NCBI GenBank assembly: GCA_002437905.1
Contig: DJRT01000014.1
Span: 55,917-119,916, forward strand
Origin: Ruminococcaceae bacterium UBA6353
GTDB lineage: Bacteria > Bacillota > Clostridia > Oscillospirales > Acutalibacteraceae
DNA length: 64,000 nt
Direction: 5' to 3'
Below the pieces are notes generated by a model. It did not search any database and was not told the origin of the DNA. It saw only the letters and a program-made list of their open reading frames with translations. Both the position numbers and the translations under genes were made by a program. Each line of letters opens with the position of its first letter. The stretch's first letter is position 1. Below are positions 17,301 through 45,597 of the stretch, in pieces.

Positions 17301-17367
17301 CGCGCAGCGCCGGCACCGCCATATCGCCGCTGCCGTAGGTTTTGACAATATTGCAAAGCTGCAGCAC
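14356..17367 (-). CDS. Fused ABC transporter ATP-binding protein/FtsX-type permease (MacB-like) with a very large extracytoplasmic domain
   Basis: Walker A GQSGCGKTT, signature MSGGQMQRVAIARAL and Walker B ILADEPTGALD, then TM1, about 580 aa of extracytoplasmic sequence, and a C-terminal FtsX domain. I prefer the GTG at 17367 (RBS AAAGGAAAGGAAG) over the ATG at 17391, which has no RBS. Confidence 0.88.
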   Translation of the reverse strand: MLQLCNIVKTYGSGDMAVPALRGVSIAFRHNEFVSILGQSGCGKTTLLNIVGGLDRYTSGDLIINGRSTRDFGSRDWDTYRNHTIGFVFQSYNLIPHQTVLQNVELALTLSGVSKAERRRRAKAALEQVGLGSQLRKKPGQMSGGQMQRVAIARALVNNPDIILADEPTGALDTETSVQVMELLKQVAKDRLVIMVTHNPALAEQYSTRIVRMLDGQVTGDSAPLTEQELAAEQALEQEKAAKRGKKKEKKPSMSFFTSFGLSLKNLFTKKGRTILTSFAGSIGIIGIALILSVSRGMNAYISALQEDTLASYPLTLEATHVDATSLLNIFVNSAKADSTHENDAVYQKAVIYDLINSLNQLEEDKNDLASFKSYLEQHLADENDATGLRAAVSGVQYSYDLQLQVYTKSPDGSVVRSDTTELMQELIAQYMGTDMANRTAASQSGSLSSLFGGMGQSTGMWQEMLPGEDGSAVSPLLKKQYDVIYGSWPQAYDEVVLVVDENNELDDMTLYALGLKSREDIDAIMKAAVDKTPLEKSDRHWSYEEICATPLRTVPAAVCYTADGASGTYTDLRESEAGMKYLYDNGLTLKVVGIIRPSEEAVSAMLTGSIGYTTALTDYIIAQANDSAAVKAQQADPATDIFTGLRFKDASAALTDEEKQTIFQQTVQAQDEAGKAATYTAIMSIPSQEQLDAAVAQTAGSADRAAMEEAMLTAMSQQMSVNSDTLKSYLSSMSDEDLAATFRTAVEEQVKAQYAAGVKAQLAGMSNAQLAAAMTAALDTYTPAQCAAYYDAVLQFSDSTYEENLVKLGKADADKPTAINLYAAAFADKDAIEDAIAAYNEQVGELSRIAYTDYVGIMMSSVTTIINAITYVLIAFVAISLIVSSIMIGVITLISVQERTKEIGILRAIGASKRDVSGMFNAETIIIGFTAGGIGVLLTYLLCIPINLLIHHLTGISNLSAYLPLPDALVLIAISVGLTLISGIIPSRSAARKDPVVALRTE

Positions 17368-17465
17368 AGGGAATCTTCCTTTCCTTTGCATAAACTGAAT
17401 GGCTCTATTCTATCAGGTGCTTGTGAACAGGCTATTAACAGGTTGAAAACAAATGCGGTTTTTCA

Positions 17466-19320: not shown

Positions 19321-20823
19321 TTATTCGGCCTTGTTGTGATATTTGCGCAGCCAGTACGAGGGCGTGCAGCTCCAGGCGTGGCAGGCGCTGTTCAGGGCCG
19401 GCTGCCCATAGGGCGACAGCCGCTCATTGCGCGGGTCGAAGCATTCCGGGCAGCAATCAAAGCCGGCATCGGCAATGGCGCCCCAATAGGTGCGGATGCA
19501 CTGCAGCGCCTTTTCCGACAGGCCGCAGGTGTACAGCGCCTCCAGATAGTAGTGCATCATGAACGGGGAGGAGCAGCGGATGGACGGGTCGGCCGCCTCG
19601 GTGCGCTCCAGCAGCTTTTGTCCTTCCTCCGGGCTGAGGGCGCCGGAAAGCGCTGCCCAGATCTGCGACTGCCAGGAGACCTCGCCCTGGGCGGTCATAA
19701 ACAGCCCGGTTTCGGCATCGTAATAGTGCAGCAGCGCCTGCTCCACCTCCGCCAGCAGCGAGGTCAGGCAGTTATAGGTGCGGCGCAGGCACTTGGCCAG
19801 CTCGATCATCTGCCGCAGGATGTAGGCCAGATACCCCAGCCCGGCCACGGCGCGGTCGTAGTTGCCGTGGTCGATAAACAGCGGCGCGCGCAGCTGCTGC
19901 GTTTTGCGGTCAAAAACCGTGTCCGCATACCGGATCTGGTGCAGCGCCACATCGTACAGCTCGTTGGCCAGCGTCAGATCGCCGCTGTACTGCACATAAT
20001 CGTACAGGCACGGGACCATGCACAGCGAATAGTCCAGGTAGATCCACTGATCCACATAGGGGCTGGTATCCGGGAAGACGCACGGGGCGATCAGGCCGCT
20101 TTTGTTGCGGTGGTCGGCAAAAAGGTGCAGGCAGCGGCGGATCAGCGCCGTATTGTGGAAGGTGACCGAGTCCACCAGCGCCTGCAGCCGCAGATCGCCG
20201 ATCCACAGCCGCCGGTCACGCTTGGGGCCGTCCTCGAACACATCCTGCTCGCATTCCTTCAGCGTTTTTACGCACATGGTGTCAATGCGCTGCAGCTGCT
20301 CATCGGGGGCGGTGTACGGGTCGGCGTCCTCCAGCCGCACGGCGGAAACGCTGTCCACATACAGGTCGGTCAGGGCCACCGGGAAGCGGAAGGTGCCGGG
20401 ACGCTCCAGCTTGAGGTACCGGAAGGAATACCGCCGCTCCAGGCTGCCGGTATAGGGCACGAAGGGCACGGTCTTGAAATCCAGCTGCGCCCATGTGGCG
20501 GAAAGGCAATTGGGCTGATCCTCGATCGACTCCATCAGCTCGATCGGCATCTCGGCAAAGGAAAAGCTGAAATTGGTCGGGGAATCCGGAATGTGGTCTG
20601 CGCTGCCGCAATCCAGCGACAGGTGCAGATAGCCGGTATAGTGGTCGCCGAAATCCAGGATGATCGGCTCCTTTTCCAGTATCAGCGGGAAAGTGACATC
20701 CCGCAGCCGGTGTATCGCATAGCCCTGAAAGCTGCGTCTGTCGGCTGTGACCTCCACGAGGGCTGCCGGCCGGACAGCCGTGTGCTGCAGCTCCCGCTTG
20801 CGTCGGTCATGCTTGCTTCTCAT
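19321..20823 (-). CDS. (alpha/alpha)6 six-hairpin glycoside hydrolase-like protein, GH78-related, paralogue 2
   Basis: 500 aa. Shares FEDGPKRDRRLWIGDLRLQAL, LNSACHAWS.TP.Y and the overall order of segments with 7005..8450. Confidence 0.6.
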   Translation of the reverse strand: MRSKHDRRKRELQHTAVRPAALVEVTADRRSFQGYAIHRLRDVTFPLILEKEPIILDFGDHYTGYLHLSLDCGSADHIPDSPTNFSFSFAEMPIELMESIEDQPNCLSATWAQLDFKTVPFVPYTGSLERRYSFRYLKLERPGTFRFPVALTDLYVDSVSAVRLEDADPYTAPDEQLQRIDTMCVKTLKECEQDVFEDGPKRDRRLWIGDLRLQALVDSVTFHNTALIRRCLHLFADHRNKSGLIAPCVFPDTSPYVDQWIYLDYSLCMVPCLYDYVQYSGDLTLANELYDVALHQIRYADTVFDRKTQQLRAPLFIDHGNYDRAVAGLGYLAYILRQMIELAKCLRRTYNCLTSLLAEVEQALLHYYDAETGLFMTAQGEVSWQSQIWAALSGALSPEEGQKLLERTEAADPSIRCSSPFMMHYYLEALYTCGLSEKALQCIRTYWGAIADAGFDCCPECFDPRNERLSPYGQPALNSACHAWSCTPSYWLRKYHNKAE

Positions 20824-21299: not shown

Positions 21300-22076
21300 A
21301 TGGAGATTGTCAAGAAGATTGTCTTCGGTGATTCGGACGACAAACCGGTCGCCTGGGGACCCGGTGTGCGCAGCGAGCACATTATCCATTATGTCACCAA
21401 GGGGCGAGGCCGGATCTATTGCAACGGCCGGGAATATACCGTCACCGCCGGGGAGAGCTTTGTGGTGCAGCCGTACCGGATGATCCGGTATGTGCCGGAC
21501 ACCGACGACCCGTGGGGATACGCCTGGTGCATCATTGATGCCCAATCGGTGGAGATGATGATGGAGCAGCTGGTGTTTAAGCAGGACGATGTTACGATCG
21601 GCTATGTGGAGCCTGCCAAGATCGTGCCGCTGTACCGGATGCTGGACGAGGTGGGCAATTTCCCGGAGGCGGCCATGACCCGGTACGGATTGGCGCACGC
21701 CATTGTGGGGGTGTACCTGGATGCCTACCCGCAGCACCGGCTGACCGCCTCGGAGGCGCTGTATGAGCGGGCGGTGCAGATCGTTGAAAGAAAATTCCAT
21801 TCGGACAAGTATTCGGTGGCCGATATTGCCGCGGATCTGAACATCAGCGGCGCCACCCTATACCGCCTTTTTGTGACAAAAAGCGGCCTGTCGCCGAACA
21901 CCTATCTGCAGAGCTACCGCATCCAGCAGGCACAGAAAATGCTGAAGGCCGGCCTGACGATCAAGGAAACCGCGCTTTCCTGCGGGTTTTCCGACCAGTT
22001 CTACTTTTCCAAGGCGTTCAAAAAGATTGCCGGGCTGACGCCGACCGAGTACAAGCAGCGCGAAGCACGCCGGTAA
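21300..22076 (+). CDS. AraC family transcriptional regulator (cupin sensor + HTH)
   Basis: N-terminal cupin-like segment (HYVTKGRGRIYCNGREYTVTAGESFVV) and C-terminal AraC HTH (SPNTYLQSYRIQQAQKMLKAGLTIKETALSCGFSDQFYFSKAFKK). RBS AGGGAGG. Confidence 0.9.
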   Translation: MEIVKKIVFGDSDDKPVAWGPGVRSEHIIHYVTKGRGRIYCNGREYTVTAGESFVVQPYRMIRYVPDTDDPWGYAWCIIDAQSVEMMMEQLVFKQDDVTIGYVEPAKIVPLYRMLDEVGNFPEAAMTRYGLAHAIVGVYLDAYPQHRLTASEALYERAVQIVERKFHSDKYSVADIAADLNISGATLYRLFVTKSGLSPNTYLQSYRIQQAQKMLKAGLTIKETALSCGFSDQFYFSKAFKKIAGLTPTEYKQREARR

Positions 22077-22267: not shown

Positions 22268-23593
22268 GTGAGAAAGAAAATTGCCTGTCTGGCTATCGCA
22301 CTTTCCATGATCTTTGTCGCTTCCTGCGGAAATTCCGGGAAGCAGGACACGACTTCCGGCAATAAAACAACCAATCCGACAACCACGACCACTGCGCCCG
22401 AGCAGATCGGAACGACCACCGCACCCAGCGGTACCACCACCGCCGGCCGCAAGGATGGCACCACCACCTCGCAGCGGCTTGTCCGCGTGACGGTGACCAG
22501 CCAGGTGGCGGAGAGCGACCCCACCCGCCGCTCCGACCGGGACAGCAATGCCGGTGAGGATGCCGGCAACCGCGTATCGCAGGATCCGGTCAACCGGGAC
22601 GACGCGCCGCCGCTGACCGAATGGAAGCAGGGCACGCTGGGCTCGTACAAGCTGGTGTGGAACGACGAATTCGACAAGGACGGCATCGACTATAACAAGT
22701 GGTGCTACGGCTCGGAGAACCCGGACACCTACGACAACATGCTGCTGCTGACCGAGGATGAGGACCCCAGCATCATCACGGCTGAGGACGGCCTGCTGAA
22801 GATGAATGCCCGCCGCTATGTCAGCAAGACAAATTCGAAGATCGAATACGCGACCAACAAATCCTTCAGCACCCGCGAGACGATGAACTTCCGCTACGGC
22901 TATGTGGAGATGCGCGCCATGGTGCCGATGCGCGCCGGCAGCTTCTCCGCCTTCTGGGCGATCGGTAAGCCGGGCTTGGTCTCCAAGCTGCCGAACGGCT
23001 ACTACACCGAGATCGACTTCTTTGAGGAATTCGGCAGTGACTACGAGCTGGTGCCGAACTTCCACAAGTGGTACGACGATTACAGCCACAGCAACTTTGA
23101 TCTGAGCTGGTCGAAGAAGCAGGGCAATACCGGTATCGGCAAAACGCAGTACGGCATCTACCGTTTCAAGGATATCCGCACGCTGCCGTATGAATTCCAT
23201 CTGTACGGTGTGGAGTGGACCAAGGAATACATCAAGACCTATGTGGACGGCGAGTGCTACTGCACCTTTGATGTCAACTATGCCTACGATAAGGATTGGG
23301 ACTACGGCCCCAATGTAAATGCCACCCAGCCGCTCAGCCCCCAGAAGAAGGATATGAGTGGTTACCACGATTACATCTACCTGCTGCTGCAGAACCTGAT
23401 CTATGCCAATGCGGACAGCGGCGTGGGAGAGAACGGCAGCGTGATCACGCAGCACATCATTGATGAAAACACGATCTTCCCGTTCCAGTACTGGGTGGAT
23501 TATGTGCGGCTGTATCAGGATCCCACCAACCCCGACAACGGCCTGTACTATCTCAACGAGAATGGACAGAAGGTCAACTACTACAACAACTAA
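22268..23593 (+). CDS. Glycoside hydrolase family 16 lipoprotein (endo-beta-glycanase)
   Basis: GTG start after AAGGAGG. Lipobox LSMIFVASC. A Thr-rich linker (TTTTTAPEQIGTTTAPSGTTTAG) precedes the catalytic domain. GH16 catalytic motif EIDFFE (ExDxxE) and concanavalin-like Trp/Tyr pattern. Confidence 0.85.
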   Translation: MRKKIACLAIALSMIFVASCGNSGKQDTTSGNKTTNPTTTTTAPEQIGTTTAPSGTTTAGRKDGTTTSQRLVRVTVTSQVAESDPTRRSDRDSNAGEDAGNRVSQDPVNRDDAPPLTEWKQGTLGSYKLVWNDEFDKDGIDYNKWCYGSENPDTYDNMLLLTEDEDPSIITAEDGLLKMNARRYVSKTNSKIEYATNKSFSTRETMNFRYGYVEMRAMVPMRAGSFSAFWAIGKPGLVSKLPNGYYTEIDFFEEFGSDYELVPNFHKWYDDYSHSNFDLSWSKKQGNTGIGKTQYGIYRFKDIRTLPYEFHLYGVEWTKEYIKTYVDGECYCTFDVNYAYDKDWDYGPNVNATQPLSPQKKDMSGYHDYIYLLLQNLIYANADSGVGENGSVITQHIIDENTIFPFQYWVDYVRLYQDPTNPDNGLYYLNENGQKVNYYNN

Positions 23594-23614: not shown

Positions 23615-26503
23615 ATGAAGCTTGTCAGGAGATTATGTGCGGCCGCAGCCTGCATGGCGGTGACCTTTGGCGCCGTTGGCGCCGCGCTGCCGCCGGCGGC
23701 AGCGGAGACCCTGCCGGCTGCGGCGGCGGATACCGTCACAGCGGCAGCGGATGGCTATGCGGTGTACGCGGCGGCGCTGACGGATTGCCCGGACGCGGCG
23801 CAGGCGATCACGCTGGCCGGCGGCGCTTACATACAGGCAACGGACGGACTGCAGCGCAGCGCCGACTATGAAACGGCACCGGACGCCGTGCTGCTGCCGC
23901 AGGGCACCGGCACCCTGACATATGAGCTGGAGGTGCCGCAGACAGCGCTGTACGCGCTCAGCCTGCGGTACGCCTCGCTGGAGGGCAATGGCCTGGATAT
24001 CCGCGTGGGCCTGCGCATTGACGGGGAGTACCCGTTCAGCGAGGCAGCGGAGCTGAGCTTTCCGCGCATGTGGCATAATGAGAGCGAGACCTGGAAGCAG
24101 GACAAGGACGGCAACGACCTGACCCCGGAGCAGACGGAATACCGCGATATGGTGGATCAGCCGGCGCGGGACAGCCTGGGCGTGGAGGTGGAGCCGTATG
24201 TTTTCCGGCTGACCGCCGGCCGCCACACCATCACGGTGGAGGGCGGCGGCGAGGCCTTTGCCCTGGGACAGCTGCGTTTCCTGCCGCCGGAGCGGCCGGC
24301 CGCCTATACGGCGCCGACGGATCTGACGGACGCGCAGGGGGTGCAGCCCATCCTGCTGCAGGGCGAGTCCGCGACCTATAAGTCCTCCTCGGCCATGGTG
24401 CCGAAAGGGGATAATACCGACGCAGCAATGACCCCGGCCAGCGCGGAGAATGTGCGCCTGAACTATATCGGCGGCTCCTCCTGGGCGAAGCCGAATGCCT
24501 CGGCCACCTGGAGCTTCCGCGTGGAGCAGGCCGGCTACTATAAGCTGGCTTTCCGCTTCAAGCAGGATCAGATCATCAATGCCAAGACCTACCGCCGCCT
24601 GAAGATCGACGGGGTGACCCCCTTTGCCGAGGCGGCGTGCATCGCCTTTCCGTATGCCACCAAATGGCAGGCGCAGGTGCTGACCAATGCCGCCGGCGAG
24701 GAGTGCCTGGTGTGGCTGGATGCGGGCGACCATACCGTCACGATGGAGTCCACCCTGGGCGCCGCGGCGGCGGTCTACGGCAAGCTGCAGACCATTGTGC
24801 AGAGCCTTGGCGACACCTACACCTCCGTGGTGATGGTGACCGGGGAATCCCCCGACGCCGGCCGCGATTATGAGCTTTTTCGCTCCATCCCGGGCTTTGA
24901 GGACACGCTGCGCACCAATATGGAGGCGCTGGATGCCCTGGTGCAGGAGCTGCAGACGCTCTCCGGTAAGAAGAGCACGCAGGCCATTGCCTCCATGCAG
25001 AATATGCGCCGGGTGCTGCGCCTAATGCTGGAGCGCCCCTATATCGCGCACCAGTACCTTTCGGATTATTATTCCAACTACTGCTCCGTCAGCGCATGGA
25101 TGAACGATATGTCCTCCATGCCGCTGGCGCTGGATGAGCTGCGTATCGTGTACCACTCGCAGGAGGCGGAGATGCAATCGGTCGGGGTGCTTGACCGGCT
25201 GCTGTTTTCCCTGCGGCGGTTCATCAATTCCTTCCGCCAGAATGACGGCAGCCAGGCCACGGCGAAGAGCGACACCAAGCTGCGCCTGTGGGTGAACTGG
25301 GGCCGCGATCAGACGCGTGCCCTGAGCAGCCTGATCCAGGACTCCTTCACGGCCGGCACCGGCATTGAGGTGGATGTGCAGATGGTCAACGCCACGCTGG
25401 TGCAGGGTATCATGTCCGGCAATGCGCCGGATCTGGCGCTGCAGATGTCGCGTGCGGAGCCGGTAAACCTCGGTATCCGCAATGCTCTGATGGATCTGAA
25501 GAGCTTTCCGGACTATGAGGAGGTGCTGCAGCGCTTCCAGCCGGGCGCCGAGGTGCCCTACTGCTACAACGGCCGCTGTTATGCCCTGCCGGATACCCAG
25601 AGCTACATGGTCATGTTCTACCGCACGGATATCCTGGAGAAGCTGGAGCTGGAGGTGCCGAACACCTGGGAGGACTTTATCCGTGCCTCCACGGTGATCC
25701 AGCGGCACAATATGCAGGTGTACCTGCCGTATACCCGCATCACCTCCGGCACCACGGTCAATGCCGGTATCGGCAGCCTGAACCTCTATCCGACGCTGAT
25801 GCTGCAGAACAAGCTGCCGCTGTATAACGATGAGCAGACGGCGACGGTGATCGGCAGCGAGCAGTCGGTCTCGGTGTTCGACAGCTGGACGCGGATGTAC
25901 ACCGATTATCAATTCTTGAAAGAGGCGGATTTCTACAACCGCTTCCGTACCGGCTCCATGCCCCTGGGCATTGCCGGCTATACCACCTGCCTGACGCTTT
26001 CGCAAACGGCGGCCGAGATCGATGGCCGCTGGGCAATGGCGCCGGTGCCGGCGGCGGACGGGGAGCACCACACCGTGGCCGGCAGCGGCACCGGCTGTGC
26101 GATCCTCTCCACCACCGACAAGGCGGAGCAGGCATGGGAATTCCTGAAATGGTGGACGAGTGCCGAGACCCAGGAGCGGTATTCCAAGAATGTGGAGTCC
26201 GTGCTGGGAACCGTCGGCCGTGTGGCGACCTCCAATGTGGAGGCATTCAAGAAGCTTTCCTGGAGTGCGACGGAGCGCGAGCAGCTGCTGGCGCAGTGGT
26301 CGCAGGTGCAGGAGATCCCGGAGATCCCCGGCAGCTATTATCTTTCCCGTGCGCTGGATCAGGCGTACTGGGAAGTCCTTAACGGCGTATCCAACAGCAT
26401 GGACGCCGTAAACAAGTGGAGCGATATCGCCAATGAGGAGATCTCGCGCAAGGTGCAGGAGTATGAGTACCTGGAGGAGGGCAGACGCAATGCCAAGAAT
26501 TAA
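23615..26503 (+). CDS. Extracellular solute-binding protein (ABC sugar importer 1) with two N-terminal CBM-like beta-sandwich domains
   Basis: 962 aa with a signal peptide (AVGAALPPAAAE). The first 400 aa or so contain two related modules (see findings). The C-terminal 520 aa or so look like a family-1 sugar-binding protein. It overlaps the first permease gene by 14 nt. Confidence 0.8.
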   Translation: MKLVRRLCAAAACMAVTFGAVGAALPPAAAETLPAAAADTVTAAADGYAVYAAALTDCPDAAQAITLAGGAYIQATDGLQRSADYETAPDAVLLPQGTGTLTYELEVPQTALYALSLRYASLEGNGLDIRVGLRIDGEYPFSEAAELSFPRMWHNESETWKQDKDGNDLTPEQTEYRDMVDQPARDSLGVEVEPYVFRLTAGRHTITVEGGGEAFALGQLRFLPPERPAAYTAPTDLTDAQGVQPILLQGESATYKSSSAMVPKGDNTDAAMTPASAENVRLNYIGGSSWAKPNASATWSFRVEQAGYYKLAFRFKQDQIINAKTYRRLKIDGVTPFAEAACIAFPYATKWQAQVLTNAAGEECLVWLDAGDHTVTMESTLGAAAAVYGKLQTIVQSLGDTYTSVVMVTGESPDAGRDYELFRSIPGFEDTLRTNMEALDALVQELQTLSGKKSTQAIASMQNMRRVLRLMLERPYIAHQYLSDYYSNYCSVSAWMNDMSSMPLALDELRIVYHSQEAEMQSVGVLDRLLFSLRRFINSFRQNDGSQATAKSDTKLRLWVNWGRDQTRALSSLIQDSFTAGTGIEVDVQMVNATLVQGIMSGNAPDLALQMSRAEPVNLGIRNALMDLKSFPDYEEVLQRFQPGAEVPYCYNGRCYALPDTQSYMVMFYRTDILEKLELEVPNTWEDFIRASTVIQRHNMQVYLPYTRITSGTTVNAGIGSLNLYPTLMLQNKLPLYNDEQTATVIGSEQSVSVFDSWTRMYTDYQFLKEADFYNRFRTGSMPLGIAGYTTCLTLSQTAAEIDGRWAMAPVPAADGEHHTVAGSGTGCAILSTTDKAEQAWEFLKWWTSAETQERYSKNVESVLGTVGRVATSNVEAFKKLSWSATEREQLLAQWSQVQEIPEIPGSYYLSRALDQAYWEVLNGVSNSMDAVNKWSDIANEEISRKVQEYEYLEEGRRNAKN

Positions 26504-27401
26504 GCGACCCGGCAGCACGCGGGCGCTGCTGCGCGAGCAGTGGCCGATGCTGGTGATGATGCTGCCCTTTTTCCTGTTGTTCACGGTGATGACGGTCATC
26601 CCCATCATCTGCTCGCTGGTGCTCAGCCTGACCTCGTATGATACGCTCAACCCGACCTATTTTGTCGGCATTGACAACTATCTGCGGCTGTTTGTCAGCG
26701 ACGCCTCCTTTCTGGTGGTGCTGAAAAACACGCTGGTGATCGTGCTGCTGACCGGGCCGGTGGGCTTCCTGCTGGCATTCCTGCTGGCGTGGCTGGTCAA
26801 TGAGTTTTCCCCGATGATGCGCACGCTGCTGTCCTTCATGTTCTATGCCCCGTCGCTGGCCGGCAATGCCTTCTTCGTGTGGAAGATCCTGTTCAGCGGC
26901 GACAGCTATGGCTACCTGAACAGCTTCCTGTTGAACCTGGGCATGATCACGGAGCCGGTGACCTGGCTGAGCGATGCCCGGTACCTGATGCCGATCATCG
27001 TGCTGGTGCAGCTGTGGCAGTGCATGGGTATTTCGTTCCTGTCCAATATTGCCGGTCTGCAGAATGTCAACCGCGACCTGTATGAGGCCGGCGCGATTGA
27101 CGGTGTGCGCAACCGCTGGCAGGAGCTGTGGTACATCACGCTGCCCTCCATGCAGCACATGATCCTGTTCAGCGTGGTTATGCAGATCCAGAGCAGCTTT
27201 TCGGTCAGCGCGATCACGACCGAGCTGGCCGGCTATCCCAGTGTGGGGCAGTCGGTGGATACCATTGTGTCCCACATGATCGATGTGGGCACGGTGCGGT
27301 ATGAGATGGGATACGCCTCAGCAGTGGCTGTGGTGTTGTTTTTACTGATGGCAGGGACGCGGATCATCCTCGGCAAATTCCTGCAGATGATCGGAAGGTG
27401 A
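26490..27401 (+). CDS. Carbohydrate ABC transporter permease (MalF/UgpA-like), importer 1
   Basis: Six predicted TM helices and the EAA loop LYEAGAIDGVRNRWQELWYITLP. ATG at 26490 lies inside the end of the binding-protein gene. Confidence 0.88.
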   Translation: MPRIKRPGSTRALLREQWPMLVMMLPFFLLFTVMTVIPIICSLVLSLTSYDTLNPTYFVGIDNYLRLFVSDASFLVVLKNTLVIVLLTGPVGFLLAFLLAWLVNEFSPMMRTLLSFMFYAPSLAGNAFFVWKILFSGDSYGYLNSFLLNLGMITEPVTWLSDARYLMPIIVLVQLWQCMGISFLSNIAGLQNVNRDLYEAGAIDGVRNRWQELWYITLPSMQHMILFSVVMQIQSSFSVSAITTELAGYPSVGQSVDTIVSHMIDVGTVRYEMGYASAVAVVLFLLMAGTRIILGKFLQMIGR

Positions 27402-27411
27402 CGGACGCGAC

Positions 27412-28323
27412 ATGAAAACTGCTACCCTACATAAGCTGCGGCGCCTGCGGCTGGGCCATGCGCCCGGCAGCCTGAGCAGCCGCCGCTTTACCCGCTCGCG
27501 CTTCGGCAACTTCCTGTGCCTGCTGGTGATCGTGCTGGCCGGCCTGTTTACCATGCTGCCGCTGATCTACGCGGTGGCGACTTCCTTTAAGCCGCTGGAT
27601 GAGCTGCTGCTGTTTCCGCCGCGCTTTTTTGTGCGGCGTCCCACGATTGAAAACTACACAGCGCTGTCCGGGCTGCTGTCGGATCAGTTTATCCCCCTGG
27701 GACGGTATCTGTTTAACAGCCTGTCCATCAGTGCCGTGACCACGGCGGTCTACATTCTGATCTCGGCTATGGCGGCCTTTGGCCTGTGCAAATCCCGGTT
27801 CCGCTTCTGCGGGCCGCTGTTCATGATCGTGCAGTTTGCACTGCTGTTTAACCCCTATACGCTGGCGGTGCCGCAGTATCTGATCCTGGCCCGCCTGCAT
27901 GTGATCGATACCTATTGGGCCTACATACTGCCGCAGCTTTCGGCTACGCTGGGTGTTTTCCTGCTCAAGCAGTATATGGAGGGCGCCCTGCCGGACGCTC
28001 TGCTGGAGGCGGCGCGCATCGACGGCGCGGGGCTGTTCCGGGTGTTTTTCCAGATCGCCCTGCCGCTGGTGAAGCCGGCGCTGCTGACGCTGATGCTTTT
28101 CTGCTTCCGCGATTCCTGGGCGATGGTGCCGCAGGGCACCATCTTCCGCGAGCAGCTGAAAACGCTGCCGATGGTCATGTCCCAGATCGCCGCCGGCGGC
28201 ATTGCCCGTTCCGGCAGCGCCATGGCGGTAACGGTCATTCTGATGATCCCGCCGGTGATCGTGTATCTGATCTCGCAGAGCAATGTGATCGAGTCGATGA
28301 GCAGTGTCGGCATTAAGGAATAA
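27412..28323 (+). CDS. Carbohydrate ABC transporter permease (MalG/UgpE-like), importer 1
   Basis: EAA loop LLEAARIDGAGLFRVFFQIALP. RBS GGAAGGTGA. Confidence 0.88.
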   Translation: MKTATLHKLRRLRLGHAPGSLSSRRFTRSRFGNFLCLLVIVLAGLFTMLPLIYAVATSFKPLDELLLFPPRFFVRRPTIENYTALSGLLSDQFIPLGRYLFNSLSISAVTTAVYILISAMAAFGLCKSRFRFCGPLFMIVQFALLFNPYTLAVPQYLILARLHVIDTYWAYILPQLSATLGVFLLKQYMEGALPDALLEAARIDGAGLFRVFFQIALPLVKPALLTLMLFCFRDSWAMVPQGTIFREQLKTLPMVMSQIAAGGIARSGSAMAVTVILMIPPVIVYLISQSNVIESMSSVGIKE

Positions 28324-28349: not shown

Positions 28350-30464
28350 TTGAAACATTTGAAAAGGATCGTAGCGTTGGCAGCGGTGCTGTGCCTGCTG
28401 GCTGCACCGCTGACAGTGGCTGCGCAGTCAACCTACGGTGACATTCCGGTCGAAAGCTATACCTATTGGGAAAAGGTCGGCTCCGGCAGCCGCAAGGCGG
28501 TCTATTCGCAGCCGATGTATCAGGTGAAGGCCATGGTGACGGCCGAAACGCTGGGCGTTGCGGACTTCAACAGCCTTTCGGCGGTGTGCACCGATACGCA
28601 GGGGAATATCTACCTGCTGGACGGGGCGGCATCGCGCCTGGTGATCACCGACAGCCAGTACACCGTTCTCCGGGAGCTGACGACGGTGGACGATAACGGC
28701 ACGCCGCTGGACTTTACCGGGGCGCGGGATGTGTATGTGCGTGCGGACGGCACGATCTACCTGTGTGATACGGACCACGCCCGTGTGCTGAAGTGCGACG
28801 CCGAGGGACGGCTGACCGGCATGCTGACGCTGCCGGAGTCCACGCTGATCCCGGAGGGCTTCAATTACGCCCCCATTGCCGTGGCGGTGGACTCCGCCGG
28901 CTATGCCTATGTGCTGTGCGACGGCTCCTACTACGGCGCAATTCTCTATACCCCGGAGGAGACCTTCGGCGGCTTCTATGGCGCCAATAAGGTCCGCAAG
29001 ACGGTGGTGCAGGCGTTTTCCACCATGCTCAGCCGGGTGTTTGTAAACAATGCGAAAAAATCCGTCAGCCAGAGCGAGCTGCCCTTCTGCTTTGTCGATA
29101 TCAGCATCGACCGGGAGGATTTTGTCTATACCGCCACCGGCTATACCGATATTTCCGGTATGAAGGGGCAGGTGAAGAAGCTCAGCCCCGGCAACGGCAC
29201 CAATATTCTGGATTCGGACAGCGTCAACTTTGCCGATGACGGCTCCAACTGGACCTTCCGTGTGGGTGAGCTGCTGCGGCAGGATATCACGGCGCTGACG
29301 GTGGATGACCAGGGCTTTATCTACTGCCTGGACAGCACCTATGGGCGCGTGTACCTGTATGACCAGGAGTGCCACCTGCTGTCCGCCTTTGGCGGCGGTA
29401 TGGGCACCGGCACGCAGGAGGGCGTGTTCCAGAAGGCGGTCGGCCTGACCCTGAACGGCAGTGACTTGCTGGTCTGTGACGGTACAAAAAACGCGCTGAC
29501 CGTGCTGGCGCTGACGCCGTTCGGCGAACAATTCAAGCAGGCGCGGGCGCTGACCATCGGCGGCAAGTACCTGGAGGCGAAGCCCCTGTGGCAGGAGGTG
29601 CTGCGGCAGGATAGCAACTGCCAGCTGGCCTACAACGGCCTGGCCCGTGCCAGCCTGGCGGAGGAGGACTATGACGCGGCAATGGCCTATGCGCGCAAGG
29701 GCTATGACCGGGACACCTATGACCTGGCCTTCAGCGAGGTGCGCACTGCCTTTATCAGCCGCAATTTCTCCTGGCTGCTGGCGCTGGCGATCCTGGTGAT
29801 CGGCGGTCTGCTGGTGCTGATGGTGGTTTCCATGCGCCGCCAGTTCAATCTGATCAAAAATCCCCGGCTGCGTCTGCTGTTCCATATGCTGGCTCACCCG
29901 TTTGACGCATTCGGCACAATCAAGGATAAAAAGCAGGGCTCGGTGCTGATCGGTACGGTGCTGCTGGTGCTCTATTATATCGGCACCGTGCTGTCGGATC
30001 TGTGCGGTGGCTTCTCCTTCACCTATGTGGATCTGGCCAGCTACAATTCCCTGTTCGTGTTCCTGCGCAGCGTCGGCGTGGTGCTGCTGTGGGTCATCTG
30101 CAATAAGGCAGTGACGGCGCTGATGGACGGCAAGGGCACCGGCAAGGAGATCTATATCGTCACCACCTACAGTCTGGTGCCGATGATCCTTTCCCGCTTT
30201 GTATATCTCGCCCTGTCCAATGCCCTGCGCTCGGACGAGGCGGAATTCCTGAATATCTTCTGCGGTGTGATGCTGGTGTGGACGCTGCTGCTGATCGTGG
30301 TCGGCACCATCCGCATCCACGATTACGGCATGGGCAAATTCCTCGGCACCACGGTGCTGAGCGTCGCCGGCATGGCGATCGTGCTGTTCCTGCTGATTAT
30401 GGTGTTCATCCTCTCCCAGCAGTTTATCGGCTTTTTGACGACGCTGTTTTTGGAGATCGTGTAA
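28350..30464 (+). CDS. Secreted NHL-repeat-like beta-propeller / TPR / C-terminal Yip1-type polytopic membrane protein
   Basis: TTG start 7 nt after GGGAGGA. Signal peptide (LAAPLTVAAQS). Repeated GxIYxxD/YVLCDG propeller-like blades, a TPR-like stretch (LEAKPLWQEVLRQDSNCQLAYNGLARASLAEEDYDAAMAYARKGY), then five hydrophobic helices of Yip1 type. Confidence 0.75.
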   Translation: MKHLKRIVALAAVLCLLAAPLTVAAQSTYGDIPVESYTYWEKVGSGSRKAVYSQPMYQVKAMVTAETLGVADFNSLSAVCTDTQGNIYLLDGAASRLVITDSQYTVLRELTTVDDNGTPLDFTGARDVYVRADGTIYLCDTDHARVLKCDAEGRLTGMLTLPESTLIPEGFNYAPIAVAVDSAGYAYVLCDGSYYGAILYTPEETFGGFYGANKVRKTVVQAFSTMLSRVFVNNAKKSVSQSELPFCFVDISIDREDFVYTATGYTDISGMKGQVKKLSPGNGTNILDSDSVNFADDGSNWTFRVGELLRQDITALTVDDQGFIYCLDSTYGRVYLYDQECHLLSAFGGGMGTGTQEGVFQKAVGLTLNGSDLLVCDGTKNALTVLALTPFGEQFKQARALTIGGKYLEAKPLWQEVLRQDSNCQLAYNGLARASLAEEDYDAAMAYARKGYDRDTYDLAFSEVRTAFISRNFSWLLALAILVIGGLLVLMVVSMRRQFNLIKNPRLRLLFHMLAHPFDAFGTIKDKKQGSVLIGTVLLVLYYIGTVLSDLCGGFSFTYVDLASYNSLFVFLRSVGVVLLWVICNKAVTALMDGKGTGKEIYIVTTYSLVPMILSRFVYLALSNALRSDEAEFLNIFCGVMLVWTLLLIVVGTIRIHDYGMGKFLGTTVLSVAGMAIVLFLLIMVFILSQQFIGFLTTLFLEIV

Positions 30465-32740
30465 TGGCGCATGGTAGACGAGGAGGTCTGGTTGCTCTGA
30501 AAAAGATACGAATTGTGGCGGCGGTGGCCGCCGGCTGCCTGCTGCTGACCGGCCTGACGGGCTGCAGCGCACAGCCGACCGGTATCCGGCCGGCCGCGTT
30601 TGACACCACGGCTGTGTCGCAGGCTCCGGAGGGCGGCATCGTGGCGGAAAACAGCCGCTACCGGCTGGAGTGGGACGACGCCAAAAAGACGGTCGCCCTG
30701 ACGGATATACAGCGCGGTACGCGCTTTTCCACCGATCCTGCGGCCTCGGCCGAGCCGGAATATGACGAGCTTGGTATGCCGGTGAAGAGCAATCCGCTGC
30801 TCTCCTCGGCACTGCAGCTGAAATACATTGACGCCGTTTCCGGCCATGAGGTATCCGCCAACTCCTATAATGGGGCGGTGCGCAATGGCCGTGTGCTGGC
30901 GACCACGCTGGAGGACGGCCTGCTGGTGACCTACTATTTTGATGAGATCCAGGTGGCCGTGCCGGTGGAGTACCGCCTGCGGGAGACCGGGCTGGCGGTG
31001 ACGGTGCGCACCAAGCAGCTGCAGGAGGGCGAGAACCGCGTCACTGAGCTGTCCCTGCTGCCCTTTATGTGTGCGGTGGAGAACACGGCGCAGGATGCCT
31101 ATCTGTTCCTGCCCTCCGGCTCCGGCGCGCTGGTGTATCCCAAGACCCTGTCGGCTACCGGCGTCAGCTACCGCCAGTCGATCTACGGCGATGACCCGAT
31201 GATCGAAGTGTTCGATTCGCCCTCTGTGGAGGCGCCGGTGCGGCTGCCGGTCTACGGCGCGAAAAACGGCGATACCGCCCTGTGCGCAGTCGTGGAGGAG
31301 GGCGCTGAGTCCGCGATGCTGGACGCCCTGATCGGCGGCAGCTCCTACCGCTATTCCGCGGCGTATGCCACACTGCGGCTGCGCGGCTATGCCAACCTGC
31401 GCGTGAAGGCGTACACCGGCAATATCATCCAAAGCGATTACTATACCGAGGATATCGTGGACACCACCCTGACGGTCGCCTACACGCCTCTGTATGATGC
31501 ACAGGCGGATTACATCGGCATGGCGGGTGTCTACCGCAGCTATCTGCAGACGGCCGGCCTGCTGACCGGGACGGACAGCGCGGCGGCCCCCTATACGCTG
31601 TATATCTACGGCGGCCTGATGAGCAAGCAGTCCTTCCTCGGTATCCCGCACAGCACCATGACCGTGCTGACGGATACCAAACAGGCCGAAACCATGCTGC
31701 GTGAGCTGAGCGAGGCTACCGGGCAGCAGCCGGCCGTGTATCTGAAGGGCTTCGGCGGCACCGGACTGACCACCGGCAAGCTGGCCGGCGGCTATACGGT
31801 AAACAGCCGGCTGGGCGGTGTGAAGGGCCTGAACACCCTGTCGGCCTACTGCCGGGAAAGCAGCATCCCGCTGTATTTCAATGTGGATCTGCTGCGCTTC
31901 AGAAAGAGCAGCGGCGGCTGGAATAAGCTGACCAGCTCGGCGCAGGCAGCCAATATGAAGAATTACTACCCGGTGCGGTACTATGTTTCCCTGCGCAGCA
32001 AGAATACAGGCACCAAGTACGCGCTGCTGACCCGCGAGAAGCTGGCGGATGCCACGGCGCGCCTGCTGAAGAAGACCGCCGGCTGGCAGGTGGAGGGTCT
32101 GGCCTTTGATACGCTGGCCGATACCGCCTATTCGGATTACGGCACCGGCTACTACTGCCAGCAGGGCATGGCGCAGACCGTGACCGATGCCCTGGCCGCC
32201 GTGCAGAATAGCGGCCGCCGGGTGGCCGTGAGTGAGGCCAACGGGTACGCCGCCGCGGCAGCGGAGCAGGTGTTCAATGTGCCGCTCAGCTCGGCCAAAT
32301 ACGATGTTTTTGATGAGGATGTGCCGTTCTATGCGGCCGTCTTTAAGGGGCACACCGCCCTGTCCACCCCCGCGATCGACCTGGCCACCCGCCCGCAGGA
32401 TGCCCTGCTGGCGGCTATGGAGGCCGGCTGTGCGCCGACCTGGTCGCTGATGTACCGGTACGATACCGCCGTGCTGAACTGCACCACGGCGGAGCTGCAC
32501 GCCGGCGTCTATGCGGAGTGGAAGGATGCGATCGTGCAGACGGTCAAGGAGGTCGCACCGTTCTACACCGCCATTGCCGGAGCCGAGATCACGGCGCACC
32601 GGCTGCTGGAGGGCGGCGTGCGGGTGACCGAATTCAGTAACGGTGTGCAGGTGGCGGTCAACCGCAGCGATACGGCGCAGCCGTCGCCGCTGGGTACCGT
32701 GGAGGCCTGGAGCTATCGGATCGGAGGGATCACCGGATGA
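30464..32740 (+). CDS. Large lipoprotein of unknown function (DUF5696-like from memory of the operon context)
   Basis: Its ATG overlaps the upstream stop (TAATG at 30462-30466). Lipobox LLLTGLTGC. 758 aa, soluble, rich in aromatic and Gly residues. Its stop overlaps the next start (ATGA at 32737-32740). Confidence 0.7.
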   Translation: MAHGRRGGLVALKKIRIVAAVAAGCLLLTGLTGCSAQPTGIRPAAFDTTAVSQAPEGGIVAENSRYRLEWDDAKKTVALTDIQRGTRFSTDPAASAEPEYDELGMPVKSNPLLSSALQLKYIDAVSGHEVSANSYNGAVRNGRVLATTLEDGLLVTYYFDEIQVAVPVEYRLRETGLAVTVRTKQLQEGENRVTELSLLPFMCAVENTAQDAYLFLPSGSGALVYPKTLSATGVSYRQSIYGDDPMIEVFDSPSVEAPVRLPVYGAKNGDTALCAVVEEGAESAMLDALIGGSSYRYSAAYATLRLRGYANLRVKAYTGNIIQSDYYTEDIVDTTLTVAYTPLYDAQADYIGMAGVYRSYLQTAGLLTGTDSAAAPYTLYIYGGLMSKQSFLGIPHSTMTVLTDTKQAETMLRELSEATGQQPAVYLKGFGGTGLTTGKLAGGYTVNSRLGGVKGLNTLSAYCRESSIPLYFNVDLLRFRKSSGGWNKLTSSAQAANMKNYYPVRYYVSLRSKNTGTKYALLTREKLADATARLLKKTAGWQVEGLAFDTLADTAYSDYGTGYYCQQGMAQTVTDALAAVQNSGRRVAVSEANGYAAAAAEQVFNVPLSSAKYDVFDEDVPFYAAVFKGHTALSTPAIDLATRPQDALLAAMEAGCAPTWSLMYRYDTAVLNCTTAELHAGVYAEWKDAIVQTVKEVAPFYTAIAGAEITAHRLLEGGVRVTEFSNGVQVAVNRSDTAQPSPLGTVEAWSYRIGGITG

Positions 32741-33624
32741 AAAAGAAGAAGCTGCGCGGCATTGATTCGCTGAAAAGCCGCTACGGGCTGATGTTCGTCT
32801 CCATCTGGGTGGTCGGCTTTGTGCTGTTTTTCCTTGTACCGCTGTGCCAGTCCTTTACCTACGCGTTCTGCGATGTGGTGTTTGGCAGCGACAAGGGCGG
32901 CAATACCTTTGTGGGAATCAAGCACTTCCGCACGCTGCTGCTGGAGGACCCCAGCTATACCGATAACCTGCGCTCGGCGGTCAGCTCCATGCTGTACTCG
33001 CTGCCGCTGATCCTGATTGTCAGCCTGGTGCTGGCACTGATCCTCAACCAGAAATTCCGCGGCCGTCTGTTCTTCCGGGCAGTGTATTTTCTGCCGGTCA
33101 TCATCGCCTCCGGCGTGGTGATGCAGCTGATCAGCGGCCAGCTTAATTCCTCCGATCAGCTGTCCTCCTCCGTCACGGAGAATATGTTTTCCGTTGCGGA
33201 TATCATGAATGTGCTGAACCTGCCGACGGCAGTGGCCACCTATGTGCAGAAGATCATCAGCAGCATTTTCTCGCTGCTGTGGCAGTGCGGTATCCAGATC
33301 GTGCTGTTTATCGCCGGCCTGCAGTCCATCCCGTCCAGCCTGTATGAGGCCAGCCGGGTGGAGGGCGCCTCCCGGTGGGAGGATTTCTGGTTCATCACCT
33401 TCCCCATGCTTTCGCGCGTGACGCTGCTGGTGGGGGTGTTCACCATGATCGAGCTGTTCACCGCCACCACCAGTCCGGTCATCCGGACGGCGTACTCCAA
33501 GATGGGCGTGGGTATCTATGATGTATCCTCGGCCATGCTGTGGATGTACTTTGCGGTGGTCGGCGCGGTAATGGGTCTTGTGATCCTGCTGTATACGCGG
33601 CTGCTGATGAAGCGGTGGGAATGA
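32737..33624 (+). CDS. Carbohydrate ABC transporter permease, importer 2
   Basis: EAA loop LYEASRVEGASRWEDFWFITFP and six TM helices. Translationally coupled to the upstream gene. Confidence 0.88.
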   Translation: MKKKKLRGIDSLKSRYGLMFVSIWVVGFVLFFLVPLCQSFTYAFCDVVFGSDKGGNTFVGIKHFRTLLLEDPSYTDNLRSAVSSMLYSLPLILIVSLVLALILNQKFRGRLFFRAVYFLPVIIASGVVMQLISGQLNSSDQLSSSVTENMFSVADIMNVLNLPTAVATYVQKIISSIFSLLWQCGIQIVLFIAGLQSIPSSLYEASRVEGASRWEDFWFITFPMLSRVTLLVGVFTMIELFTATTSPVIRTAYSKMGVGIYDVSSAMLWMYFAVVGAVMGLVILLYTRLLMKRWE

Positions 33625-33634
33625 GAGGTGTGCC

Positions 33635-34612
33635 ATGAACGATAAAAAACTCGGCGGCGGACTTTCCGCCTGCCCAAAGGCGGCACGCAAAACGGCCGAT
33701 GTCGTGGTCGCCGTGGTGCGGTGGTTCATCCTGCTGGCCATCGGCTATATTGTCATCTATCCGCTGTTTTATATGATCACCTCCTCCCTGAGCTCCCGCA
33801 GCTCGCTGCTGGATCCCACCAGCGTGTGGATCCCGAAGGAGCTGACGCTGGATAACTTCAAATTCATGTGGGAGGTCATGGACTACGGCAAGGCATTCCT
33901 GTCCACCGTGCGGGTGGAACTGGTCAGTGCGCTGATCGAGGTGCTGACCTGTGCCATCGTCGCCTATGGCTTTGCCCGCTTCCGCTTTCCCGGCAAGCGG
34001 CTGATGACCGCGGCGCTGTTCCTTACCATTCTGATCCCGGCGCCGATGATTATTATTCCGCTGATGATCAACTTTTCCCACCTGGATCTGTTCGGCATCC
34101 TGTCGCTGGTCAAGACGCTGGGAGGCCCGGATCTGCGGCTGGATCTGCTGGGCACGCCGTGGACCTTCTGGCTGCCCTCGCTGTTCGCCAACGGCCTGCG
34201 TGCCGGCATCATGATCTACATATACATCCAGTTTTTCAAGGGCCTGCCCGGTGAGCTGGAGGAGGCTGCCTGGATGGACGGCGCCGGCCCCATCCGCACC
34301 TTCTTCTCCATCGCGGTGCCCTCCTCCAGCGTGGTTATTCTCACGGTCACGGTGTTCTCCATCATCTGGCACTGGAACGATTCCTTCCTGGCCACCATGT
34401 ACATGGATACCGACTATCCCCTGAGCGTGACCATGAGCAAGCTGGTGGAACTGCTGACCTACAAGAATGTCTACCTGTCTCCGGACCGGCCGGAGGGACT
34501 GGCCTATATCATGGCCGCCTGCCTGATGTTCATTCTGCCGCCGCTGGTATTCTACCTGATCGTGCAGCACTGGTTTGTGGAGAGCATCGACCGGGTGGGT
34601 ATCACCGGCTAA
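33635..34612 (+). CDS. Carbohydrate ABC transporter permease, importer 2
   Basis: EAA loop LEEAAWMDGAGPIRTFFSIAVP. RBS GAGAGG. Confidence 0.88.
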   Translation: MNDKKLGGGLSACPKAARKTADVVVAVVRWFILLAIGYIVIYPLFYMITSSLSSRSSLLDPTSVWIPKELTLDNFKFMWEVMDYGKAFLSTVRVELVSALIEVLTCAIVAYGFARFRFPGKRLMTAALFLTILIPAPMIIIPLMINFSHLDLFGILSLVKTLGGPDLRLDLLGTPWTFWLPSLFANGLRAGIMIYIYIQFFKGLPGELEEAAWMDGAGPIRTFFSIAVPSSSVVILTVTVFSIIWHWNDSFLATMYMDTDYPLSVTMSKLVELLTYKNVYLSPDRPEGLAYIMAACLMFILPPLVFYLIVQHWFVESIDRVGITG

Positions 34613-45479: not shown

Positions 45480-45510
45480 ACTGACCGGCACCGGATCGGA
45501 GAATTTTTGC

Positions 45511-45545
45511 GGGGGCATCCGCACAGCGATGCTGCGGATGCCCCC
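45511..45545 (+). terminator. Hairpin after GLUG-B (weak terminator or processing site)
   Basis: 13-bp stem GGGGGCATCCGCA / TGCGGATGCCCCC with a 9-nt loop. There is no T-run, so read-through into the GH36 gene is likely. Confidence 0.4.
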
Positions 45546-45597
45546 GACCGGTCTGCCTATATCATATGTTTTATTGTCATGTGGAGGATATGGAACG

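Follow-up and report, generated by a model that had tools for sequence, protein, structure and literature searches.

The stretch of DNA analyzed here (the window) comprises 64,000 nucleotides (nt) of the forward strand of contig DJRT01000014.1 (positions 55,917 to 119,916) from Ruminococcaceae bacterium UBA6353, a member of the Acutalibacteraceae (assembly GCA_002437905.1). Two adjoining genes of the window are the subject of this report: one encodes a 704-amino-acid (aa) protein that joins an NHL-type propeller, TPR-like hairpins and a Yip1 membrane domain (the Yip protein), and the other a 758-aa lipoprotein of the DUF5696 family. They lie between permease pairs A and B of two ATP-binding cassette (ABC) importers, as an earlier note made from the letters of the window had placed them, and we found that the two are fixed members of an ancient, strictly syntenic Bacillota cassette with two CUT1-type importers (Table 1). 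The open reading frame (ORF) of 704 aa has a GGGAGGA 7 nt upstream of its start, the last base of its stop (30462-30464) is also the first base of the ATG at 30464 (TAATG), which in turn has GGAG 9 nt upstream, and the TGA of the 758-aa ORF overlaps the ATG of permease B1 at 32737 as ATGA; the earlier note had read both overlaps in the same way. Judged by their hundreds to thousands of homologues, both ORFs are real genes and not chance ORFs, since at least 353 homologues (E<=1e-3) of the 704-aa protein were found and the DUF5696 family forms 4074 clusters at 50% identity (E <= 1e-30).

Table 1. Coordinates in the window of the cassette genes, of the protein regions they encode and of single codons discussed in the text (SBP, solute-binding protein; GH, glycoside hydrolase family).
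Feature	Coordinates	Strand	Basis or remark
GH16 glycanase, head of the gene string	22268..23593	+	Pfam GH16; recurs in related loci
Giant SBP, 962 aa, importer A	23615..26503	+	SBP domain 566-858 after a long N-terminal extension; position conserved
Permease pair A	26433..28323	+	A1 to 27401, A2 27412-28323; BPD_transp_1; conserved order
NHL-propeller / TPR / tether helix / Yip1 membrane protein gene, 704 aa	28350..30464	+	TTG start, TAA stop
Signal peptide, aa 1-26, ends VAAQ	28350..28427	+	Hydropathy peak at residues 7-25 and sequence; cleavage site predicted
Six-bladed NHL-type beta-propeller, aa ~35-389	28452..29516	+	Sequence and fold matches to solved structures, strand pattern of the model
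TPR-like helical hairpins, aa 390-453	29517..29708	+	Sub-threshold Pfam matches, model helices, TPR in homologues
Tether transmembrane helix TM1, aa ~470-497	29757..29840	+	Model and hydropathy
Yip1 domain, five transmembrane helices, aa 512-682 (helices to aa 703)	29883..30395	+	Pfam PF04893
DUF5696 lipoprotein gene, 758 aa, GH129/GH101-like three-domain fold	30464..32740	+	
Lipobox cysteine Cys34 (LTGC)	30563..30565	+	Cys in 48/58 relatives
Asp558 of the YSDY motif	32135..32137	+	Sole nearly invariant barrel Asp in the family (55/58)
Asp639	32378..32380	+	Asn in 56/58 relatives
Permease pair B	32737..34612	+	B1 32737-33624, B2 33635-34612; BPD_transp_1
Ordinary lipoprotein SBP, 499 aa	34738..36237	+	SBP_bac_1 and SBP_bac_8

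A scan of the genome collection with an alignment of the Yip protein found 238 loci, 80 of which were examined, and the order giant SBP, A1, A2, Yip, DUF5696, B1, B2 was present in all 80 as far as the contigs reach. Among 401 Bacillota genomes sampled evenly across the phylum, DUF5696 gave a strong match in 32 and the Yip protein was present in 31 of those 32, and in the remaining genomes of the sample neither DUF5696 nor the Yip protein was found; these genomes are related, so the count is a tally and not a statistical test. The co-occurrence statistics proposed by the earlier note thus came out as conserved linkage with importers, and its statement that the pair recurs beside large binding proteins was borne out in Paenibacillus, Cohnella, Caldicellulosiruptor and many Clostridia, with Lederbergia also among the carriers. 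Moreover, in a phylum-wide set of twenty 20-kb stretches from 18 genomes (17 within the phylum sample), Yip-DUF5696 was followed by B1-B2 in all twenty loci, directly adjacent in 19 and with three genes inserted in one (L133). The block of giant SBP, A1 and A2 was located on the other side in 3/20 of these loci, which indicates that the Yip-DUF5696 pair travels with permease pair B. The propeller/TPR/TM1 part (~490-510 aa) and the Yip1 part (~205-230 aa) were adjacent separate genes in nine of the twenty loci; being fused in the window and neighbouring separate genes elsewhere, the two parts evidently work together. In the genome of UBA6353 itself (2.28 Mb, 98.9% complete), Yip1 and DUF5696 are each represented by exactly two genes, with a pair in each of two cassettes, and the second cassette, on contig C8, has the same order and parts 28-48% identical to those of the window, suggesting that the duplication is ancient. 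We also observed one variant cassette (L133:6835-15991, genome G350), which consists of a propeller-Yip1 protein (635 aa), DUF5696, an HlyD-like fusion protein, a MacB-like permease, B1/B2 and a GH16-like gene, with neither the giant SBP nor the A pair nearby; it is the only locus seen that joins the cassette to YknWXYZ-type parts.

The two overlapping junctions differ in their conservation. The overlap of the DUF5696 stop with the B1 start was kept in 42/70 loci (4 nt in 37, 1 nt in 5), whereas the Yip-to-DUF5696 overlap was rare (6/77 loci); the gap at the latter junction is nevertheless always short, since in most loci 70-106 nt separate the Yip stop from the lipobox cysteine codon. The fixed stoichiometry that the earlier note had read from the overlaps is not implied by overlapping codons, and only the DUF5696-to-permease overlap is conserved. 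A terminator scan (28 matches as a whole vs 13.1 expected) gave weak matches only between 22268 and 36237, none of which was judged convincing, which fits a single transcription unit and is not proof of it.

The model of the 704-aa protein (alignment-based AlphaFold; predicted local distance difference test, pLDDT, 83) contains ~24 strands in the propeller region, and solved NHL, PknD and Pizza propellers match the protein by sequence (E 8e-10 to 1e-6). Foldseek matched the modelled propeller to the NHL domains of Thin, TRIM71 and Brat (template-modelling (TM) score 0.72-0.79 on the target), so that the region has the six four-stranded blades of an NHL-repeat propeller. One conserved insert of the propeller (aa 212-246, window positions 28983-29087) was modelled with a pLDDT below 50 and contains the invariant residues N213, R229, F231, N234, K236, L244 and P245; from the model, its folding may depend on contact with a partner. 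The following region has four helices at 390-451, and TPR families are recorded for many homologues. The tether helix TM1, into which a long helix passes, is the least conserved part of the protein (31% identity, the propeller, TPR and Yip1 regions each being near 50%), coincides with the point at which the gene is split in other lineages, and is joined to the Yip1 helices by a short Arg/Lys-rich linker placed on the cytoplasmic side. Pfam Yip1 scored 41.9 bits against a cut-off of 28.6 and covered profile positions 2-172 of 173, and the profile search of the bacterium's own genome confirmed the match at 45.5 bits. The model places the Yip1 helices at 532-552, 567-591, 598-623, 632-657 and 661-703, so that the membrane part consists of six helices, the tether and five of Yip1. 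The protein thus shows the Yip1 profile and five helices after a cytoplasmic segment, in a topology predicted from the positive-inside rule. Pfam, the solved-structure matches and the model agree with the three-part architecture described in the earlier note (NHL propeller, TPR-like stretch, five-helix Yip1). In the profile searches that the note had suggested, Yip1 and DUF5696 exceeded their cut-offs, while NHL (19.8 bits vs 20) and TPR (TPR_16 25 bits vs 32.7, TPR_19 18.4 bits vs 25) stayed below theirs, the NHL assignment being backed by the sequence and fold matches.

The 758-aa protein matched Pfam DUF5696 (PF18952) with 413 bits (cut-off 25.6) from profile position 8 to the last, 612, in agreement with the family named in the earlier note. 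Its N-terminus has a positively charged region, a hydrophobic core and LTGC, with predicted lipidation, and more distant relatives have an N-terminal membrane helix in place of the lipobox; with either the lipobox cysteine or the helix, DUF5696 would always be tethered outside the membrane. In the model (pLDDT 91) an N-terminal beta-sandwich is followed by a broken (beta/alpha) barrel and a C-terminal beta-sandwich. The GH129 domain layout is likewise beta-sandwich, (beta/alpha) barrel and beta-sandwich (PMC5698469), and as modelled the 758-aa protein has this three-domain fold. Foldseek placed the model nearest to 5opq (DagB/ZgGH129, E 7e-34, TM 0.62/0.70) and 5wzn (NagBb, E 2e-27), with further matches to GH101 and then to GH36 and GH31 enzymes, and the family profile matched the same two solved structures (5opq E 8e-10, 5wzn E 1.6e-4). 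A single-sequence search against solved structures gave no match, so the GH129 link was detected only by the profile and fold searches; in addition, hhalign aligned DUF5696 with four Firmicute GH129 sequences at a probability of 97.5%. The DUF5696 profile also cross-matches GH13 branching enzymes and DUF6259 in the barrel, which at the sequence level points to a common origin of the three barrels. The '...YSDY' motif of DUF5696 was observed to align with '...YLDY' after conserved region II of GH13 branching enzymes (loci L136 and L138, from other genomes). No domain fusions of DUF5696 were present among the best 150 representatives, and a literature search on DUF5696 found no paper in the library searched, which is not proof that nothing is published.

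Although DUF5696 is related to GH129 in fold and, by its profile, in descent, it does not keep the catalytic residues by which GH129 enzymes are recognised: the segment with the nucleophile is missing, and the residue in the acid/base column changes from protein to protein. Pfam GH129 (PF11308) did not match the 758-aa protein at E <= 0.01, whereas a genuine Firmicute GH129 protein scored 404 bits with the same tool. Previous work identified NagBb Asp435 and the equivalent DagB Asp486 as the conserved catalytic Asp, found that relatives of DagB have not kept the acid/base of NagBb, and showed that in the GH129-like DagB an N-domain Asp (D202) and the barrel Asp (D486) are both essential (PMC5698469). 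In the hhalign alignment, which is a sequence-profile alignment and not a structural superposition, the segment of the GH129 nucleophile faces a six-residue gap in DUF5696, and the conserved D558 aligns nine residues downstream of that nucleophile, to a non-catalytic motif. The acid/base Glu of NagBb, which we take to be Glu478 (the numbering of the solved chain agrees, with Asp at 435 and Glu at 478), is not kept either: column 590 is S, D, N, E or T (19, 11, 9, 8 and 5 of 58), Ser in the window protein, and also Q in the cassettes compared. Column 591 is Glu in the window protein and Gly, Ser or Asn in many relatives, and column 549, with which the GH13 nucleophile aligns, is Asp in the window protein and mostly Arg or Ser elsewhere. 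From its motif and residue offsets, D558 (AYSD) had seemed to us to correspond to the nucleophile of NagBb (AYLD), but neither the hhalign alignment with GH129 nor the alignment with GH13 branching enzymes supported this, and the reading was dropped. Nearly invariant in DUF5696 are Y157, Y213, S220, D244, Y350, Y357, D558, N593, Y595, N639, E653, H712 and N733, and the set persists in nearly all cassettes compared, although their neighbour enzymes differ (GH16, GH13, GH26, GH10, GH5 or a pectinase). At position 639 the window protein departs from the family, with Asn in 20 of the 21 other cassette proteins compared and Gln in one; the Asp is not a sequencing error, since an independent 99%-identical cluster has the same residue. 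Asp639 comes after barrel strand 632-637, the expected place of an acid/base residue in related enzymes.

The median identity among the 80 loci was 35% for DUF5696, 37% for the small SBP, 44% for the Yip protein, 46% for the giant SBP and 54-64% for the permeases, so that within the cassette evolution is fastest in DUF5696 and the small SBP and slowest in the permeases. We compared Kimura distance matrices of the seven components over 71 complete loci, and calculated each pairwise partial correlation while controlling for the other five. The known physical partners B1-B2 (partial r 0.53), giant SBP-A2 (0.39) and A1-A2 (0.32) were recovered. Four links of the pair under study reached similar values, namely Yip-DUF5696 (0.35), Yip-giant SBP (0.33), Yip-B1 (0.27) and DUF5696-B2 (0.26), none of which was reached in any of 999 permutations, and no signal was present between the A and B permeases (-0.12 to 0.14), for DUF5696-B1 (0.04) or for DUF5696-giant SBP (0.07). 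Gene adjacency does not explain these correlations, because the adjacent A2-Yip and DUF5696-B1 were low, whereas the non-adjacent Yip-SBP, Yip-B1 and DUF5696-B2 were high. The three Yip links persisted when the 62 close loci were taken by themselves, and also when the analysis was confined to the 40 loci with the small SBP. Taken together, the partial correlations are suggestive of the Yip protein as a hub that would connect the giant SBP, DUF5696 and permease B1.

The importers around the pair have the parts expected of CUT1 systems. Permease pair B is about 25% identical to pair A, and the 499-aa SBP is likely the receptor of importer B. An ordinary SBP (435-500 aa) followed B2 in 36/54 testable close loci, and the C8 paralogue and loci further removed had it at one or other edge of the cassette, so each permease pair can have its own receptor. 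We had also considered that pair B has no binding protein and uses DUF5696 instead, and rejected this as a general case, as the cassette usually has an ordinary SBP at one of its edges, though phmmer with the window SBP missed it. No ATPase gene was found in the window cassette; a single MsmX/MalK-type ATPase gene is present elsewhere in the genome (C3:51175-52368, 398.7 bits), and one further genome has such a gene directly upstream of the cassette. Bacillus subtilis 168 has MsmX and lacks the cassette. With its permeases, SBPs and unlinked MsmX-type ATPase, which would presumably energise it, the window system is of the CUT1 type. Read as its longest ORF, permease A1 overlaps the last ~70 nt of the giant SBP gene (26433-26500) and has an Arg-rich beginning; its true start is probably the later ATG giving MPRIKRP. 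An AraC-type regulator gene is located at 21300-22076, and AraC genes flank many related loci.

The glycanase genes that accompany the cassette differ from locus to locus: GH16 in the window and its close relatives, two giant GH13 enzymes at the C8 paralogue, GH26 in L114, GH10 in L124 and L125, GH5 in L123, PF10091 ("putative glucoamylase") in L121, and GH106 with a pectate lyase in L119. This indicates a general uptake module, in which the role of the pair is not bound to one glycan. Specificity for carrageenan, raised by the top fold match (DagB) and a weak kappa-carrageenase match of the GH16 protein, was rejected since many unrelated glycanase genes accompany the cassette. Flanking the C8 cassette (C8:30297-69154, loci L143 and L144) are genes for the two multidomain GH13 enzymes, of 1351 and 1564 aa, for a six-hairpin protein resembling rhamnosidases, for a lectin-like protein of 882 aa and for GH43. 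In the window, a GH36 alpha-galactosidase gene is located at 45400-47784, downstream of beta-helix surface-protein genes, and a GH78-like (alpha-rhamnosidase-type) gene at 19321-20823 (minus strand), divergent and upstream of the AraC gene; these two genes may hint at the glycan targeted by the locus. Further upstream, 14356-17391 (minus strand) encodes a 1011-aa fusion of an ABC ATPase and an FtsX/MacB-type permease, whose gene is found upstream of spoIVB and shows no linkage to the cassette.

Because the Yip protein and DUF5696 are fixed parts of a widespread cassette joining two ABC sugar importers, the pair probably helps to capture or hand over complex-carbohydrate fragments for uptake. 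For the manner in which it does so we tentatively propose, at somewhat less than an even chance, an accessory complex of the twin CUT1 importer, predicted from sequence comparison, in which the Yip protein is the hub and DUF5696 binds or gates. The propeller and TPR would face outward and the Yip1 helices would lie in the membrane; the propeller/TPR ectodomain of this membrane hub would hold the giant SBP and DUF5696, and the Yip1 helices would pack against permease pair B. DUF5696, which keeps a GH129/GH101/GH13-type barrel without the canonical catalytic pair, would more likely be a binder or gate than a classical glycosidase, and would bind or gate oligosaccharides at the membrane surface and pass them to importer B. 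Worded as a glycan-processing or gating accessory in the earlier note, such a role stands as a reasonable hypothesis, but simple glycan processing is not established, as the canonical GH129 residues are not conserved. The same note had stated that Yip1-domain proteins have no assigned function in bacteria, which is contradicted by Bacillus subtilis, whose Yip1 protein YknW modulates how the YknXYZ ABC transporter is assembled (PMC4887032). YknW offers a loose precedent, by analogy, for a bacterial Yip1 protein as an ABC transporter accessory. Several points weigh against the accessory complex that we propose. YknW serves an exporter of a different ABC class, which is what makes the analogy loose; the permutation tests are inflated by related sequences, and shared selective history can mimic contact; other partial correlations of ~0.2-0.3 were unstable between subsets (DUF5696-A1 0.09, then 0.33); and an unconventional active site would likewise be compatible with the invariant polar set, which includes two Asp residues.

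That last point leads to an alternative that we consider unlikely but still worth serious weight, in which DUF5696 is an active tethered glycosidase of a new GH129-related family that trims endo-glycanase products to importable size with lineage-specific specificity, and the Yip protein merely positions it by importer B. The GH129/GH101 fold at high confidence and the remote sequence homology are consistent with such an enzyme, as are the near-invariant D558 and D244 beside the two Asp residues that DagB needs, which likewise lacks the NagBb acid/base, and the window copy is acidic at D549 and E591. Moreover, DUF5696 diverges as fast as the binding proteins and far from the pace of the permeases, which fits a substrate-facing protein. 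However, the GH129 nucleophile falls in the missing six-residue segment, the acid/base column holds S, N, D, E, T or Q, and in the column of the GH13-type nucleophile most proteins have Arg or Ser. The fold relatives are all alpha-retaining, yet the enzymes beside the cassettes are those for beta-glucan, xylan, mannan, pectin and alpha-glucan, and the invariant residues do not change across these neighbouring enzyme families. The same constancy, being independent of substrate, would suit a pair that never touches sugar and serves the assembly, stability or placement of both importers in membrane and cell wall. TPR and propeller are typical protein-protein modules, YknW is described as modulating complex assembly (PMC4887032), and the low-confidence conserved insert at aa 212-246 resembles a partner-binding segment. 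An analogy for a glycosidase-like protein in such a role exists in 4F2hc/rBAT, the glycosidase-like heavy chains of eukaryotic amino-acid transporters. Nevertheless, we regard a pure assembly function as improbable, since fast, SBP-like divergence of DUF5696 is unexpected in a scaffold and Tyr-rich invariant positions (Y157, Y213, Y350, Y357, Y595) are typical of sugar-binding surfaces. Finally, the propeller/TPR/Yip1 protein could be a sensor through which the neighbouring AraC-type regulator is informed of glycan outside the cell: propellers outside the membrane also serve the hybrid two-component systems that sense glycans (weak fold matches 4a2m and 3va6), and AraC genes lie beside the window cassette and many related loci. 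This is very hard to credit, because the protein exposes only short loops to the cytoplasm and lacks a signalling domain there, AraC genes are not constant neighbours, and the 704-aa protein co-varies with transporter parts.

When the cassette was compared with known systems, the permeases, SBPs and shared ATPase proved to be ordinary CUT1 parts, and the three accessory proteins (propeller/TPR, Yip1 and DUF5696) and the obligatory pairing of importers are in no described system found. Like CUT1 importers of the MalEFGK2 or MsmEFGK type, the cassette has BPD_transp_1 permease pairs, SBP_bac_1 / SBP_bac_8 binding proteins, co-located glycanase genes and an AraC regulator, and no ATPase in the locus with a single MsmX-type ATPase elsewhere; unlike them, it has two permease pairs always together, one binding protein of ~1000 aa and the three fixed extras. 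YknW of the B. subtilis YknWXYZ system is also a bacterial Yip1 membrane protein encoded with an ABC transporter, but it is a bare Yip1 protein for a MacB-type exporter with a membrane-fusion protein, whereas the Yip1 protein of the window has a propeller/TPR ectodomain and type-I importers; HlyD and MacB genes were not found in the window cassette and were seen only in the variant locus L133. DUF5696 resembles GH129 and GH129-like enzymes (NagBb 5wzn, DagB/ZgGH129 5opq) and GH101 in its three-domain fold and detectable profile homology, and differs from the GH129 enzymes in being membrane-tethered and always encoded with permeases. The propeller has the six-bladed fold of, and significant sequence matches to, NHL propellers such as the PknD sensor domain and TRIM-NHL proteins, but continues into TPR hairpins and a Yip1 membrane domain. 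Literature searches on Yip1 with Caldicellulosiruptor, and on Yip1 with ABC and polysaccharide, returned nothing relevant, which is not proof that nothing has been published.

A bolder and more doubtful extension of the accessory complex is an unrecognised ABC import machine, in which the Yip1-anchored propeller/TPR hub would tie two type-I importers, the giant SBP and a catalytically disabled glycosidase-fold receptor into one supercomplex. If so, it would be a Gram-positive counterpart of the Bacteroidetes 'utilisome' and would contain the first dedicated accessory subunits for type-I ABC importers, with DUF5696 in a role like that of the heavy chains of eukaryotic amino-acid transporters. 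The cassette is present in about 8% of the sampled Bacillota genomes, and among the bacteria that have it are major degraders of fibre in the gut, the rumen, soil and hot springs (Acutalibacteraceae, Oscillospirales, Lachnospiraceae, Paenibacillus and Caldicellulosiruptor). Several copies, each by a different glycanase gene, are present in many genomes. If the three accessory proteins are needed for uptake, Gram-positive polysaccharide models that consist of an SBP, two permeases and a shared ATPase would miss a common component, and bacterial Yip1 function would gain a second, far more widespread example.

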